Part shown: positions 6,422-21,799 of the stretch, piece by piece | Numbering within the stretch: position 1 is the first letter of the stretch | How the letters are laid out: every line of letters begins with the position of its first letter | Assembly: GCA_036271915.1 (NCBI GenBank) | Contig: DATAZS010000509.1 | Span: 1 to 43,044 of the forward strand | DNA length: 43,044 bases | DNA from: Polyangia bacterium | GTDB lineage: Bacteria > Myxococcota_A > Polyangia > Fen-1088 | Direction: 5' to 3' | Notes under the pieces: model-generated | Told to the model about the DNA's origin: nothing | What the model saw: only the letters and a program-made list of their open reading frames with translations | Database searches by the model: none | Made by a program: the position numbers and the translations under genes

Positions 6422-8770
6422 TCAGCGCGACAGGAGCAGGGAGCAGATCTGACGGACCTCTGGCTGGGGATCGGCGCTGGCGGCGGTTCGGAGCGCCGCG
6501 AGCGCCTCTTTGCTGCCGAGGACGGCGAGGGCGCTCGCGGCGGCTTTTCGAGCCGCGACGTTGCGCATCGACATCGCCTGCACGAGCGCCGCAGAGGCGT
6601 CGGGGCGTCGCATGCGCGCGAGCGCCGACGTGAGCGCGGGGGCCGTCTCGTCGTCCGCTTCCTCGAGCCCGACGACGAGGCCCGCGATTCGACCTTCGAC
6701 GTGCAGGGACAGCGCCGCCAGCACCTGCTCGGTCACGGTCCCCGTCGCCAGCAAGCTGATGAGCGTTCGCGTCGCGGGGCCGCCCGTCATCGCCGCGAGG
6801 AAGCCGATCGACGCCGTGCGCACGCTCTCGTCGGGATCGGCCGCCGCCACGCGGAACGCGCTCAGCACCGACAGCGATCGGAAGCCGGCGAGCGCCGAGA
6901 TCGCGACCAGGCGAGTCGCCGCGTCGGGTGAGCGCGCCGCGTTCAGAATGAGCGGCAGCGCGTCGGAGCGCTGCGCGACGCCGAGCCCGACGAGCGCCGC
7001 GCGCTGGATGTCGCTGTCGGCGTCCACGGCCGCGGCGTTGAGGGCCTGCGCCGCGGCGTCGCCGCGCAGGCAGGACAGCGCCTCGACGGCGGCGACGCGC
7101 ACCTGGCCCGCGGGATCGGCGAGCAGCCTGATGATCGCCTCAGCCGCCGGCTCGGAGGCCAGCTTGCCCAGCGCCTGGCACGCGTAGTAGCGCACCCACG
7201 CGTCGGGATCGCCGAGGCCCTTCAGCAAGTACGCGCTCGCGCGCAGATCGCCGACGCATTGGCCGAGGCTGCGCATCGCCGCCGCGCGCGTCTTGTCGGA
7301 GGCGTCCTTCGCGGCCGCCAACAGCGCGTCGAACGCGCGCGGATCGTCCATGAAGGGCAGCCCCTGGACGGCCGACTCGCGCACGCGCTCGTCGGGATCG
7401 CGCAGCGCCTCGATGAAGACGTCGAGCGCGAGCGACGAACCGAAATAGCTGAGAATCCGCAGGGCCGCGCGCCGGATGCGCACGTCGGACGATCGCGCGG
7501 CCTCGACGGCGAGTCGGTCGGCCTCGTGGCTGCCGAGGGATTGAATCGCCGCGACCGCGGCGTACGAGACGCGCGGGTCGGCGTCGGCGAGCACGCGGAA
7601 GAGCGCGCCCACCGCGGGGACGGCGCCCATGCGCGCGAGCGCCTCGCAGGCGAGGACGCGCACGTCGGCATCGGGGTCGTTCAGACAATCGACGACGTCG
7701 AGGGTCGCGCTCGCGCTCGAGATGAACGGCAGCAGGGCGCGCTTGTGCGTGCTGTCGCCGTCGCGAATTCCCTGCAGGATCTGCTCCTCGACCTGCGGGC
7801 CGAGCCCGCGCAAAGCCGCCGAGGCGGCGTCTGCGACGGGTGGCGCCGCGTCGAGGAGCGCCGTCAACGCCGGCGCCGCCGACGGATCGTGCGCGACGCC
7901 CAACAAGACGCAGATGGCCACCTGCTCGCCGGGCTCGCCCTGAGTCAGTGCGAGGATCAGCGGTCGAACGATCCCCGCGTCGCGGGCCCCGGCCGCGATC
8001 TCGGCGGCGACGACGTCGCCGTTGCCAGCGCGCTCTTGATAGCGCTGGCGGAGATCGGCGAGCGAGACGGCACACAGGCGCACGATGGCGCTCGCTGATT
8101 TCGAGATGAGCCGTACGAGGGGCGCGACGGCCGCCACGTCGCCCGTTCTGCCCAACGCGCGCGCGGCTTCCGCGGCGTACTGCGGCTGGTCGAGCAGCGC
8201 CGTCAAGGGCGCTACGGCGCGCGGATCGCCGCTGCGCCCCAGCACCTCGATCGCGGGGAAGGCTCGGAAGAAGTTCGCGCTCTTGACGGCGTCCACCAAG
8301 GAATCGACGGCGGCGCGGCCGCCGATGCGCCCAAGCGCCTCGATGGCCGCGGCGGCGACGTTGTCATCGGCGTGCCGGCTGAGCGCGATCACGGTCGACA
8401 GCGCCGAGGTCGTGCGCCGCCGCCCGAGGATCTGGGCGATGTCGGCCAGCACGGGGATCTCGACGTCGGCGGCGGCCATCGCGGCCAGCGCCGGGTCGGC
8501 GTCGCCCGTGAAGGCGGCCAGGGCATCCACCGTGGCGGCGATGCGTCCTTCGTTGTCTCGTCGGTCCTGCAGCGCCTCGCAGAGGAGACCCACGGCGCCC
8601 GGCCCGCTGGCCGCGAGCGCCGCGACGACGGCGCGCCGCACGGCCCAGTTCGGGTCGTCCAACATGCCGATGAGCCGATCGACGCCGCCGCCCTTGGCGA
8701 GGCGCTCGATCTCTTCGACCCGCCGCAGATCCTCGGGGGAGAAGGCTATGCGGCCCGCGACGAGGCTCAT
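6422..8770 (-). CDS. HEAT-repeat (PBS-lyase-type) protein, 782 aa, embedded in the che operon (Cpc7-like)
   Basis: About 16 units of the pattern D(P/A)Dxx(V/I)RxxAxxALGxxG by eye, for example [87 protein letters not shown] overlap with the mcp stop at 8767-8770. Confidence 0.9.
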
Positions 8771-11352
8771 GCACGCTCGGCGGGCGCTGACGACGCGCCC
8801 TGAGCTTCGCGCAGCGCCGTGAGATCGGCCGTGAGGTTCTCGATGGCTTCCGCCTGCTGCGCGTTGGCGGTCCTGACCTTCCCGATGCTCGCGGCCACGG
8901 CGCCGACGTCCTTGGCGGTCGTGATCGCGCCCTTCGCGTGCTGCGCGACCGCCGAGACGATCTCTTTGACGTTCACGCGCATGTCGACGACGGCCTTCGA
9001 GATCTGGGAGCTGGCCGTCGCCTGCTCGGCGGCGGTGCGCGCGATCGTTCCGACGCCCGTGGTCTGCTTGGTCGCCGTGCCCGACAGGGCAGTCAAAGCG
9101 TCGGCCTGCTCCGCGACGGCGCGCGCGGTCTGCTTCGCGATGCGGCGAACGTCGTCGCCGGCCTTCGCGAGGCCTTCGAGCGCCTTGCCTTGCTCTCCCG
9201 TCGCCTTGGTGACCTCGGCGGCGAGCTTCGCGACTTGTCGAGTCGCCACCTCCATCTGTCCCATGGCGCGTGACTGCTCGGCGATCGCCTTCGCGCTCTG
9301 CGTCGTCTCTCTCTTCGTGCTCTCGACGGCCGTCGTCACCTCGGCAGCGCCGCGCGCTTGCTCGGCCAACCCCGTCACCATCCGCTGCGAAGCCGTCGTG
9401 ACCTCGGTCGCGAGCGTCGTCAGTCCCGTGAGCGCCCGCGTCTGCTCGACCATGGCGGCGGTCGTTTGCTGCGCCACCGTGCGCATGCGGGCCGCCGCCT
9501 TCGCGAGCTGCCCGGCGCCCGAGGCCTGCTCCTCGGCGGCGCGCGCCACCTTCTGAATGTTCGTGCCCAGCTGGGTCGTCGTCTTGACGTTCGCGCGGAT
9601 GGCGCGCGCCTGCTCGCCCGTCGCGTCCTTCGTCTGCTTGGCCATGCGCCGCATCTCGGTCGCGGCCTGGCTCAGGCTCTGGCTCGCGTTGACCTGCTCG
9701 GCGGCAGCGCGCGCGACGGCCTTGCCCTCGTCGCTGACGCGCGTCGTGCTCTGCGTGAGGGCCTGGACGGCCTGCGCCTGCTCGCCGCTCGCGCGCTCGA
9801 TGTCGGCGACACCGCGGCTCACGACGTCGATGCCCTGCAGGATCGAGCCGAGCGCCTTCTCGGCGTCGCCCGCGAGCCGCGCGCCCTCGTCGGCGACCTT
9901 GAGGCCGTCGCTCGAGGCCGTGACGGCGTCTCGCGCCGTGCTCTGCAGGCCTCGCACGATCTTCGCGATGTCGGCGCTCGCCGCCGCCGCGCGATCGGAC
10001 AGCGCGCGGATCTCCTCGGCGACGACGGCGAAGCCGCGGCCGTGCTCCCCGGCGCGCGCCGCCTCGATGCTCGCGTTGAGCGACAGCAGGTTCGTGCGGT
10101 CGGCGAGGAGGTTGATGGTCTGGACGATGTCGCCGATCTCCTCGGTGCGCTTGCCCATCTCCTTGATGACGGAGGACGACTCCTGCATCGCTTGTCGAAT
10201 GCCGCCCATGCCCGCGATCGATCGCCCGACGACGGCGCCACCGTCGCGCGCCGTCGCCGTCACCTCGTCGGTCGTGCGACGGGTCGTCGTGATGAGCTCG
10301 ACGATGCGCCGCGCGGCCCCTTCGGCCTGACCCGACGCCGCGGCATTGCTGCTCGCGAGCGTGTTGATTTGATCCGCCGAGCGCGCCATCGCGTGCGCCG
10401 AGCGCGCGAGCTGCTCGATGCTCGTGGCATTCGCGTCGATGACCGCGGCGTTCTTCTCGGCGGTCGCGGCGACCTCCTCGACGGAGGCGGCCAGCTCCGT
10501 GAGCGTGGTCGAGGAGCTCGCGGCGGCGCCTTCGAGCTCCTTGACCTGCTCGGCGATGCCGCGCGCCGAGCGCGACATCTGCTCCGCCGTCGCGGAGGTC
10601 TCCTCGACGGCCGTCGCCATCTCGGCGCCGTCCTTCGCGACGCGTTCGACGGTCGAGGCCGTGCTCGCGATGGCGCCCGTCATCTCGGCGATGCGCGCGC
10701 CGACGCCCTCGGCGTCCGTCGCGAGCCGGGTGACCCCCTTCGCCATGCCGCCCACCGTCGACGTGACCTGCTCCATCGCGGCCGCCGTCGATTGGCCGCG
10801 CTCGGCGAGCTCCTTGATGCTGAGCGTGCTCTCCGTCGTCGCGGCGAGCAGCTCTTCGGCCGACGCCGCCAGATCCTCGGCGTTCGCGCCCACGCCCTTG
10901 ATCGAGCGCGTCGTCTCTTCGAGCATGGCCGCCGTCGACTCGGTCGACGTCGCGAGCGCCTCGCCGTCCTTCTTGACGCCGCCCACGGACGAGGCGATCT
11001 CGCGCAGCCCGCTGCTCACCGTCTGCTGCGCCTGCTCGAGCTCCTTGGCGGTCTCGGCGGCGTGGCCTTGTGAGCGCGCGAGGCTCTGCACGGAGGTCGC
11101 CGTCTCCTCGATGCCGGCCGCGAGGGCCTCCATCGAGACGCGCACCTGTTCGCTCGCGGCGGCCTGCTCATTGCCACCGGCCGCGAGCCGCGTCGCGGCC
11201 TCCTCGATCGACGAGGCCTGCGCCGCCGAGTCGCGGAGCGCGCGCGCGGCGTCGGTCGCGCCCGACAGGGCGTCGTCGAGGCTCACGCGGCGGTTGCCGT
11301 TCGTCCCGCTCGCGTTCTTCGTGCTACTCGGCATGCTCCCGCTCCTCGCCAA
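8767..11352 (-). CDS. mcp: Soluble (no TM segment) methyl-accepting chemotaxis protein, 861 aa, with a central signalling hairpin
   Basis: The canonical MCP tip [50 protein letters not shown] sits at residues 404-454 (AGEHGRGF is encoded at 10030-10053). There is no hydrophobic stretch, and Ala/Glu/Thr/Gln-rich helical sequence flanks it on both sides. Alternative start at ATG 11334. Either start overlaps the cheW 3' end. Confidence 0.93.
8770..9783 (-). repeat. In-frame 84-nt / 28-residue periodic array (about 12 units) forming the C-terminal arm of the MCP
   Basis: An 'EQ' dipeptide occurs at residues 524, 552, 580, 608, 636, 664, 692, 720, 748 and 776. That is ten consecutive intervals of exactly 28 residues. 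Degenerate QH (804) and QQ (832) follow in the same phase. The units are diverged in sequence, so they are not recent DNA duplicates. Confidence 0.85.
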
Positions 11353-17398: not shown

Positions 17399-17414
17399 GT
17401 TTGTAACTTAGGTT

Positions 17415-17441
17415 GCGAAAACCGACCACACCAGTGGGTGG
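17415..17441 (-). terminator. Candidate intrinsic terminator after the DUF3618-like gene
   Basis: The minus-strand RNA reads CCACCC-acu-GGUGUGG, a 6-bp stem with one bulge, followed by UCGGUUUUCG. It lies 9 nt after the TAA at 17450-17452. The stem is short. Confidence 0.3.
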
Positions 17442-17449
17442 TCTATGTA

Positions 17450-17866
17450 TTAGCGACCCTGCGCGGTCGAGCTCCAGCGCTCTGCGGCCCGCCGCGCGAG
17501 CACCGCAGCGACGGCAGAGGCCGCCGCGGCAAAGACCTTCTTCGCAACATCTGGAGATTGCTTGGCGACGCGCTCAGGATGGTTCGTCACGCGTCGCAGA
17601 GCTTGTGCCACCCGGCTCGCGCGCGAGGGTCGCGAACGTCGGATACGCCAGAGGACGTAGCCGCCGATGCCGAGCGAGACGACCGCGACGGCGCCGATGG
17701 CGAGCGGCTTCGCCGCGCGGTGCCGTCGGCGATCGAGCTCACCGACGAGACCGCCCAGATCGTCCCGGATCGCCTCGACGTTGGCTTCCAACTGCTCAGC
17801 CTTCGCATCGGGCGCGGCGTCTGGCGCGGGTTCCCCGTGTTCGTCCCGAGAGCTTTCGGACGGCAT
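17450..17866 (-). CDS. DUF3618-like membrane-anchored stress-type protein
   Basis: Internal ATG 17866 (MPSESSRDEHG...) lies 2 nt after the stop of the upstream gene. It has a helical segment LEANVEAIRDDLGGLVGELDRR followed by one TM segment (PLAIGAVAVVSLGIGGYVLW). Confidence 0.65.
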   Translation of the reverse strand: MPSESSRDEHGEPAPDAAPDAKAEQLEANVEAIRDDLGGLVGELDRRRHRAAKPLAIGAVAVVSLGIGGYVLWRIRRSRPSRASRVAQALRRVTNHPERVAKQSPDVAKKVFAAAASAVAAVLARRAAERWSSTAQGR

Positions 17867-17868
17867 GT

Positions 17869-18285
17869 CTACACCACCCTTTCTTTGGCGAACTTCACGT
17901 CCTGTTCGAGCTCGTGGCGCGTGCGGGCCAATGGCCGCTGCACCCGTTTGCCCCAGCCCATGGCCCCCGCGATGACGGCGACGATGATGACCGCGCCGCT
18001 CACACATAGGCCCGCGAGCCACGCCGGCAGCACCATGGCGAGCCCCAAGATGCCCGTGACGAGCAGCAAGGCGATCGCCAGCAGCCCCGCGAGCGCGGCG
18101 ACGCTCAGACCGGCGATCATGGACTGCTCGCGTGACAGATCGGCGCGTAGCTCAGCCTTCGCCAGATCGATCTGCGCCGTCACGAGGTGTTTGCTCTGGC
18201 GGACGATCTCTTCGAGGAGCTCGGGCGTCGACAGCGTTGCAGGGCTGGTGTGCTCCGTGGGTTGATTCTTAAAGTCTGTGGCCAT
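17869..18285 (-). CDS. Phage-holin-family / DUF1469-like small membrane protein
   Basis: Internal ATG 18285 (MATDFKNQPTEH...). Pattern LVTAQIDLAKAELRADL followed by two TM segments (MIAGLSVAALAGLLAIALLLV, LAGLCVSGAVIIVAVIAGAM). The upstream part of the track ORF is Arg/Pro junk. Confidence 0.7.
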   Translation of the reverse strand: MATDFKNQPTEHTSPATLSTPELLEEIVRQSKHLVTAQIDLAKAELRADLSREQSMIAGLSVAALAGLLAIALLLVTGILGLAMVLPAWLAGLCVSGAVIIVAVIAGAMGWGKRVQRPLARTRHELEQDVKFAKERVV

Positions 18286-18398
18286 GCCAATCACTGTGGT
18301 TACGAAGTGCGCGCGCAAAAGGGGGACGAAGAAAGTCGTCCGGCCGCAGCCCTCGACAACGGCTTGCGGGCTCTTAGTTTGCTGGGGGAGGTATGACG

Positions 18399-18560
18399 AT
18401 GAACTGTTCAGCCTGTGGCTCTCAGAATTGCGCATGTGACAAGGGCGGCAAGTGCACCTGCGCGAAGGATTGTCCTGCGTGCGCCTCGAAGCACGGCAAG
18501 GGCAAGGCGCCCAAGACGTCCGTCCCGTCCGAAGCGGGCAGTGGGAATCCGCGAAGGTAG
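18399..18560 (+). CDS. Unannotated 53-codon Cys-rich, aromatic-free ORF (metallothionein-like)
   Basis: MNCSACGSQNCACDKGGKCTCAKDCPACASKHGKGKAPKTSVPSEAGSGNPRR. It has 8 Cys arranged CxxC-x4-CxC-x5-CxC-x3-CxxC and no Phe, Tyr or Trp. GGGGGAGG at 18384-18391 lies 7 nt before ATG 18399; an upstream in-frame ATG at 18393 is too close to the RBS. A GC-rich hairpin follows the TAG. The ORF is too short to appear in the ORF track. Confidence 0.55.
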   Translation: MNCSACGSQNCACDKGGKCTCAKDCPACASKHGKGKAPKTSVPSEAGSGNPRR

Positions 18561-18575
18561 GCCGTGATGGTGGCG

Positions 18576-18625
18576 CCTTGGCGGCGTCGAGCCGTCGCGA
18601 CATCGCGATGGCGCCGCCGCCAAGG
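18576..18625 (+). terminator. GC-rich hairpin downstream of the Cys-rich mini-ORF (possible terminator)
   Basis: CCTTGGCGGCG (18576-18586) pairs perfectly with CGCCGCCAAGG (18615-18625). The 28-nt loop is itself partly self-complementary (ATCGCGAT). Only a weak T tail (TTCGACTG) follows. Confidence 0.3.
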
Positions 18626-18761
18626 TTCGACTGACATGGAAGCCGCGTCGCGCGGTTACCGGGACGTTACATCCGAACCGTGATCGGGTTTCTTTGCCGG
18701 CGGCTCGTTAGTCGACGGTATTTGTGCGGCCGCGGAACTATGTTACGCCGGGGAAGCGGTC

Positions 18762-21799
<3,038 letters not shown>

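Follow-up and report, generated by a model that had tools for sequence, protein, structure and literature searches.

The locus raises two questions: whether a 53-codon, cysteine-rich open reading frame (ORF) on the forward strand of the window (the whole stretch of 43,044 nucleotides of Polyangia DNA that was analyzed) is a gene, and what its product would do in the cell. Four features bear on the first question:

18353 to 18380, forward strand: candidate promoter block, consisting of TCGACA (18353-18358), 16 nt, and TAGTTT (18375-18380); conserved in the twin locus L039.
18384 to 18391, forward strand: Shine-Dalgarno (SD) sequence GGGGGAGG, read from the sequence, 7 nt 5' of the ATG.
18399 to 18560, forward strand: coding sequence of a 53-amino-acid, eight-cysteine metallothionein-like peptide, stop codon included; assigned from the translated ORF, its homologues, and its invariant cysteines.
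18575 to 18626, forward strand: nested GC-rich stem-loop with a minimum free energy (MFE) of -54.8 kcal/mol (z = -5.8 versus shuffles).

Translation of 18399-18560 gave MNCSACGSQNCACDKGGKCTCAKDCPACASKHGKGKAPKTSVPSEAGSGNPRR, which is 53 amino acids long and is followed by a stop codon. Eight cysteines span residues 3 to 28 in the spacing CxxC-x4-CxC-x5-CxC-x3-CxxC and make up 15% of the 53 residues; F, W, and Y are absent, and the single histidine is H32. A preliminary description, made from the sequence alone, had reported an unannotated 53-codon ORF with this cysteine spacing and without aromatic residues, preceded by a strong SD 7 nt before the ATG, divergent from a holin-like gene, and lower than its neighbors in third-position GC content (GC3). 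All of these observations were reproduced. The translation agreed, GGGGGAGG was found in the expected place, and the divergent gene, which is holin-X-like (PF07332), occupies 17869-18285 on the reverse strand. The exact peptide was absent from ~15 billion predicted proteins, and the ORF is therefore considered uncalled. GC3 was 0.74, with 14 of the 53 codons ending in A or T, versus 0.83 to 0.90 in four neighboring genes and 0.76 in the unassigned ORF at 17450-17866. The cysteine codons were also atypical, with four TGT and four TGC in this ORF versus no TGT and 12 TGC in three large neighbors. When all six frames of the window were considered, at least seven cysteines within 26 residues occurred in only three places; one was this ORF, and the other two were an irregular cysteine run on the forward strand and a CCCCCC run on the reverse strand.

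A second in-frame ATG at 18393 would yield a product of 55 amino acids. Because this codon is ACG in the closest relative and every relative begins M-x-C, the start was placed at 18399. GGAG-like SD sites stand at the same distance from the start in nearly all relatives.

A six-frame search of 41 related genomes recovered clear homologues in four of them, three belonging to the same genus and the fourth to the same family. The homologues in G001 and G004 begin MKCSQCGSANCSCDKDGKCNCSSTCACAKKK and MTCAACGRENCPCDKNGQCNCGPDCVCTKK, respectively, that in G005 is nearly identical to the G001 copy, and that in G013, a genome with a second copy, begins MTCSACAQNNCNCDKDGKCNCSKDCACAKQK. Scanning 185,579 species genomes with the pattern CxCDK[DGN]G[KQ]C yielded 30 loci, all of them in metagenome-assembled genomes and labelled Acidobacteriota (Vicinamibacteria and Thermoanaerobaculia) or Polyangia, together with one "Proteobacteria" bin and one Thermoleophilia bin. 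Among 1.84 billion representative proteins, a full HMMER pass found 15 clusters, named only "hypothetical protein," and a word-indexed search of 5.8 billion proteins returned only one to three relatives, since the gene is rarely called. Members of the family are 31 to 60 amino acids long.

An alignment of 24 sequences (A2) showed M1, all eight cysteines, D14, K15, and G17 to be invariant. The invariance of C11, C13, D14, K15, G17, and C19 in A2 is partly by construction, these residues being part of the search pattern; C3, C6, C21, C25, and C27/28 were invariant even though they lie outside it. Profile matches varied at two positions, with K15 replaced by Q and K18 by T, E, A, or R. Aromatic residues were absent from the core in all 24 aligned members, one member having a Phe in a long tail, and cysteine accounted for 23% of a typical 35-amino-acid member and 28% of the 29-residue core. 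Variation was concentrated at third codon positions, where the summed entropy was 29.2, versus 10.5 and 12.8 at the first and second positions, respectively. Mean pS was 0.65 and mean pN was 0.155, for a pN/pS of 0.24.

The closest relative is P0012 (locus L039), a 53-amino-acid peptide from a JGI metagenome that shares the CxxC variant and the tail of the window peptide. Relative to the rest of the family, the variant in the window has a one-residue insertion (CPAC for CxC) and a conserved 24-residue tail. The DNA of the window and that of L039 can be aligned from the SD to the stop codon and over a short upstream block, the flanks being unrelated. Nine synonymous and three nonsynonymous changes separate the two tails, which argues that the tail is translated and constrained. 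Judged by these substitution patterns, the ORF at 18399-18560 is a genuine gene under purifying selection and, by its conserved residues, belongs to a so far undescribed family of mini-proteins with eight cysteines, found in Polyangia and Acidobacteriota of soil. Conservation of the frame and of the cysteine positions in relatives, which the preliminary description had proposed as a check on the ORF, was found at the 30 loci, with invariant cysteines and the pN/pS of 0.24.

Of 301 genomes sampled from the class of the window, 5 had a match, and all 5 belong to one family; in the class to which L025 belongs, 18 of 301 genomes had one. The window peptide was 66 to 74% identical to Acidobacteriota/Thermoanaerobaculia copies versus 43 to 51% identical to copies from its own genus, in sequences that are too short for a firm tree. 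Horizontal acquisition is suggested by the atypical GC3 and TGT usage, by the closer resemblance to the Acidobacteriota copies, and by the different flanks of the twin locus; from these features, the window copy was probably acquired horizontally. No orthologous empty site corresponding to window positions 17400-20400 was found in relatives, in none of which are the holin-X-like and CheB-CheR genes adjacent.

The gene also has candidate expression signals. Apart from the SD, the TCGACA-N16-TAGTTT block is the sole conserved stretch upstream of the gene in the window and L039, and it is tentatively assigned as a promoter block of both; it lies under the threshold of the sigma-70 consensus scan, which found no promoter between 18200 and 18800. 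A scan of the same interval found only one terminator-like site, at 18671-18689, not adjacent to the ORF. The stem-loop that follows the stop codon consists of an outer stem of 12 bp (18575-18586 and 18615-18626) around an inner 9-bp stem (18591-18599 and 18604-18612), has no U-tract 3' of it, and is likely a transcript-end or stabilizing hairpin. An 11-bp hairpin had been described here previously; its arms (18576-18586 and 18615-18625) are present but are only part of the larger nested structure. A hairpin after the stop codon is found family-wide, the sequence itself not being conserved: over the 70 nt that follow the stop codon, the MFE averaged -32.2 kcal/mol in the family versus -23.8 kcal/mol in controls (P = 3e-9). 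The only Rfam match was a chance one to mir-128, far under threshold.

Upstream of the peptide gene, a sigma-54-type -24/-12 element was present in 18 of the 30 regions (L011, L012, L014 to L016, L018 to L021, L023, L025, L027 to L032, and L038) versus 0.5% of control windows, the criterion being TGGCAC-N5-TTGCA with at least 9 of 11 matches, GG and GC fixed, at 25 to 60 nt before the ATG. These predicted elements imply control by an enhancer-binding protein. At this criterion, the element is missing from the window copy and its twin. One candidate in the window, GGGCTCTTAGTTTGCT, matched at 8 of 11 positions and was rejected, as no more than 15 nt separate it from the ATG and its GG is missing in the twin locus; at that distance from the ATG, the transcript would probably lack the SD. 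To judge from the recurrence of its parts, the usual unit is a promoter, an SD, an ORF of ~35 codons, and a hairpin, which makes it a small gene in its own right rather than an upstream ORF. A dyad, GGACGA-N6-TCGTCC, was also seen at window positions 18324-18341, between the holin-X-like and peptide genes; it is not conserved in L039.

The second question, that of function, was approached through likeness to known proteins. The single window peptide had no significant sequence match in Pfam, NCBIfam, or the PDB, and searches with the family gave none either, with no NCBIfam model matching any of the peptides. Its cysteine spacing had been described as unlike that of the known bacterial metallothioneins, and the profile comparisons agreed: at E <= 10, none of the 24 members matched PF02069 (SmtA/BmtA), and SmtA (score, 15.3; probability, 3.8%) and MymT (score, 11.3; probability, 0.65%) stayed at background in hhalign, two comparisons that serve as leads only. 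PF00131 (vertebrate metallothionein) gave no match in the family, and PF02067 (insect metallothionein) gave weak, subthreshold matches in 10 of 24 members (best E, 0.04) and none for the window peptide; all of the metallothionein-profile matches are below curated thresholds and arise from cysteine-rich, low-complexity sequence.

A search of the PDB with the family profile returned only two matches, to metallothionein beta-domains from mouse (MT-1, 1dft) and from a fish (1m0j); they were weak, with E values of 2 and 8.4, respectively, but in exact register (nCgCDKgGkCnCgkdCaC versus NCSCSTGGSCTCTSSCAC). Aligning A2 with mouse MT-1 by hhalign gave a probability of 87 to 94% over 22 to 24 columns. 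The score was 30.6, versus 13.7 +/- 3.0 for 200 shuffles of MT-1 (maximum, 26.8); since no shuffle of the 200 reached 30.6, the likeness lies in residue order and spacing and not in composition alone. Neurospora Cu-metallothionein (23.1) and Drosophila MtnA (25.2) scored at intermediate levels, again as leads only. The AlphaFold2 model built from the 24-sequence alignment was of only moderate confidence, with a mean pLDDT of 66.8, 74 to 81 in the core, a small bridge, and a helix, and a Foldseek comparison of this model with the PDB gave no structural match.

The register CxC-x5-CxC-x3-CxC is shared by the family and the vertebrate beta-domain (mouse MT-1, 1dft; Notothenia metallothionein, 1m0j), with six cysteines and the first-loop GG aligned (NCSCSTGGSCTC versus NCACDKGGKCTC). 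It is also the register of the seven-cysteine Cu-metallothionein of Neurospora crassa, a comparison that is a lead only. Lysines flanking the cysteines, the lack of aromatic residues, and a unit of ~30 residues add to the likeness with both. The family differs from them in being bacterial and in having eight cysteines, whereas the vertebrate beta-domain has nine and the Neurospora protein has seven. Its extra cysteine pair is the N-terminal CxxC, in place of the C-terminal CxC-xx-C of the beta-domain; in contrast to vertebrate metallothioneins, it has an invariant Asp-Lys in the loop and no alpha-domain. The beta-domain likeness may reflect either homology or convergence, between which the alignments do not distinguish.

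Among bacterial proteins, the Cu(I) metallothionein MymT of Mycobacterium tuberculosis resembles the family in being small and cysteine rich, is 53 amino acids long like the window peptide, and has a role in the copper stress response (PMC13578184). By analogy, it is expected to be a functional counterpart of the family. The MymT sequence has no similarity to the family in hhalign and a different Cys/His pattern, and MymT is under a CsoR-type repressor, whereas most family members have sigma-54-type promoters instead. The SmtA/BmtA proteins (PF02069), of which Pseudomonas is one source, are likewise bacterial, small, and cysteine rich, and the family may by analogy sequester metals as they do. 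The fold of SmtA is zinc-finger-like, its ligands are Cys9His2, and it contains aromatic residues; in contrast, the aligned family has no conserved histidine and no aromatic core residue. The traits by which metallothioneins are classically recognized, namely, a mass under ~10 kDa, a high cysteine content in CxC/CxxC motifs, and no or few aromatic residues, are all found in the family.

The gene neighborhoods of many relatives hint at metals, and at copper in particular. Metal-transport genes, chiefly those for CopA-type ATPase and CusCBA-like proteins and also those for multicopper oxidase, ZnuA, Nramp, and CorC proteins, occurred at no fewer than 14 of the 30 related loci. The gene for a CopA-type ATPase immediately follows the peptide gene on the same strand in five loci (L022, L023, L025, L027, and L038), immediately precedes it in L013, and stands 2.8 kb from it in L010; several of these ATPase-linked loci come from close Vicinamibacteria relatives and are not independent. 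The CopA-type (P1B) ATPase has YHS and HMBD domains and a CPC motif, scored 595 bits against TIGR01511 ("copper-translocating P-type ATPase"; cutoff, 397), and had CopA as its best equivalog model. Its sequence contains the YN of FAFIYNSLG and MSLSS, which we take to be Cu(I)-type signatures. Genes for OEP, CusB-like MFP, and RND proteins were found in L020, L025, L028, L030, L031, and L038, and further loci carried genes for a multicopper oxidase (L030), ZnuA with ABC-3 (L020 and L031), Nramp (L034), and CorC (L018). The commonest Pfam families among 121 neighbor proteins were E1-E2_ATPase, YHS, and HMBD (six each) and HlyD_D23 (five). At least four distinct arrangements of metal genes were seen, and the link is therefore not one inherited synteny. 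Metal genes are lacking at roughly half of the related loci, where G6PD, a TPP enzyme, GH15, PFL, and protein kinases are among the neighbors. The neighbors of the window copy comprise the holin-X-like gene and genes for DUF2934, response regulators, a CheB-CheR-PAS protein, and histidine kinases, with no metal gene among them; neither this nor the beta-domain register had been remarked on in the preliminary description. Cytosolic copper handling by CopZ (an HMA-domain protein) and Csp3 is also encoded beside CopA-type ATPases, a possible parallel to the Vicinamibacteria loci; in contrast to CopZ and Csp3, the family has no HMA fold and no four-helix bundle, is far smaller, and has a cluster-like cysteine density instead of a single CxxC site.

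Because its genes often lie beside copper-export genes, the family is probably metal binding and metallothionein-like. The window peptide itself is likely to be a new bacterial metallothionein-like metal-thiolate peptide, probably with a link to Cu(I). The earlier reading as a possible new bacterial metallothionein or metal-buffering peptide thus gains support, at the level of sequence, from the conservation, the lack of a match to known families, and the metal genes of the relatives. The peptide has no signal peptide and no hydrophobic stretch, is lysine rich, and is predicted to be cytosolic, and its eight invariant cysteines are by their spacing in a cluster-type register. The mini-gene would be expressed autonomously from its candidate promoter block, strong SD, 53-codon ORF, and stem-loop. 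The eight cysteines (CxxC-x4-CxC-DKxG[KQ]-CxC-x3-Cx(x)C) would then wrap several metal ions in a metal-thiolate cluster, with a load per peptide of ~4 to 6 Cu(I) or 2 to 3 Zn/Cd(II) by analogy with the beta-domain and Neurospora Cu-metallothionein. D14, or H32 in the window variant, may serve as an extra ligand. The peptide would thereby serve as a buffer or sink for surplus metal in the cytosol, most likely Cu(I), and could possibly hand it on to CopA-type or CusCBA-type exporters, the window copy being a free-standing variant of the family.

The same cysteines could instead belong to a structural zinc mini-protein, in which two fixed Zn(Cys)4 knuckles would form a lysine-rich adaptor or regulator acting on a transporter, a regulator, or nucleic acid and would not store metal. 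Eight cysteines fit two tetrahedral sites, and the N-terminal C-x-x-C-G, with its nearly invariant G7, resembles a zinc-knuckle half-site. The strongly conserved D-K-x-G-K loop suggests a defined fold, the AlphaFold core has a pLDDT of 74 to 81 with its small bridge and helix, and metal genes are absent at many loci. Against this reading, the three CxC pairs in the CxC-x5-CxC-x3-CxC register typify metal-thiolate clusters and not zinc ribbons, no match was obtained to a zinc-ribbon or zinc-finger family in Pfam or to a fold in the PDB, and the copper-export context better suits buffering. A structural zinc role is therefore judged unlikely.

A bolder version of the metallothionein reading would make the family a true bacterial homologue of the unit found in the eukaryotic beta-domain and fungal Cu-metallothionein, serving in Acidobacteriota as the sigma-54-driven, cytosolic copper-buffer arm of CopA/CusCBA export modules and moving horizontally between soil phyla. 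This full combination is quite doubtful. If it is true, eukaryotic-type metallothioneins would have a prokaryotic counterpart or source, and bacterial copper homeostasis would include an enhancer-dependent circuit that responds to metal.

Alternatively, the peptide might act as a sacrificial thiol buffer against redox stress or electrophiles, with the link to copper arising from copper-induced oxidative stress and not from direct metal binding; redox buffering had also been raised in the preliminary description. The high cysteine density would suit such a role, as would the position of the window copy amid genes for signaling proteins and small "stress-type" membrane proteins. A thiol sink, however, has no need of exact cysteine spacing maintained over two phyla, and family members neighbor genes for metal export and import rather than for peroxidases or thioredoxins; a thiol buffer consequently seems highly improbable. 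Still less credible is a precursor of a modified or secreted cysteine-rich peptide (RiPP or bacteriocin), which the small, cysteine-rich ORF and a glycyl-radical enzyme beside locus L016 might bring to mind. The cysteine core begins at residue 3 and so leaves no leader peptide, signal peptide and hydrophobic stretch are lacking, and the tail is short and variable in most members. No radical-SAM, cyclodehydratase, lanthipeptide, or peptidase/ABC-export family recurs among the 121 neighbors, and no maturase family is among their 25 commonest families. The preliminary description had likewise considered a RiPP precursor less likely, and both the lack of a recurring maturase-type neighbor and the early start of the cysteine core bear this out. 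Finally, the ORF might have arisen by chance or might act in cis as a regulatory upstream ORF with an immaterial peptide product, as its shortness, its GC3 under that of its neighbors, and its omission by gene callers might suggest. This reading has a negligible probability and is refuted as far as sequence comparison goes by the cysteines that are invariant across phyla, the low pN/pS with saturated synonymous sites, the comparison with L039, and the free-standing position of the gene in unrelated contexts with its own SD and hairpin.

Only a small number of bacterial metallothioneins have been characterized, among them MymT, the pseudothioneins of Pseudomonas, and the SmtA/BmtA types of cyanobacteria; a 2026 paper that lists them still described knowledge of them as limited (PMC13578184). 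When the literature was searched with motif strings and by topic, the eight-cysteine family was not found described; by its sequences it would represent an undescribed family within the metallothionein functional class. It spans two abundant, mostly uncultured soil groups, Vicinamibacteria with other Acidobacteriota on the one hand and Polyangia on the other, and gene callers nearly always miss it, with ~15 clusters in 1.84 billion representative proteins, none of them functionally named. If it binds copper, the family would fill a gap in the cytosolic handling of copper by these Acidobacteriota and Polyangia groups. At ~35 residues it would also offer a compact, easily synthesized metal-binding unit, and it would permit a direct test of whether the beta-domain cysteine register had one origin or several. 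Given that sigma-54-type promoters recur in the family, Acidobacteriota may have a metal-response circuit, of which no description was found.

Several minor observations were made at these loci. Small ORFs with a CC...CC pattern and a hydrophobic N terminus (e.g., MAADDCCTSDGPTIAGTCCGDD) are present at L031:5260-5595 (forward strand), L030:5230-5649, and L032 ~8342-9043. They lie between the peptide gene and the OEP-MFP-RND genes in L030 and L031, and 3.3 kb downstream of the peptide gene in L032, where no OEP, MFP, or RND gene was found. They have no Pfam or NCBIfam match and may encode a further metal-related protein. L009:1384-4122 (reverse strand), 0.9 kb from the peptide gene, encodes a P2-type cation ATPase (Cation_ATPase_N/C) with an N-terminal HMA domain, an unusual combination of domains. 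L019:6323-8635 (reverse strand), 1.3 kb from the peptide gene, encodes a 771-amino-acid pyridine-nucleotide-disulfide oxidoreductase with a long N-terminal extension. The second copy in G013 (L035:24-140, forward strand), a genome that also holds L021, has a Tyr in place of the seventh cysteine (CAYAK) and may be a decaying paralogue or a contig-edge assembly error. The holin-X-like gene at 17869-18285 of the window has a paralogue with 83% identical DNA on a different contig of the same assembly, at G000:C186:9211-9598.
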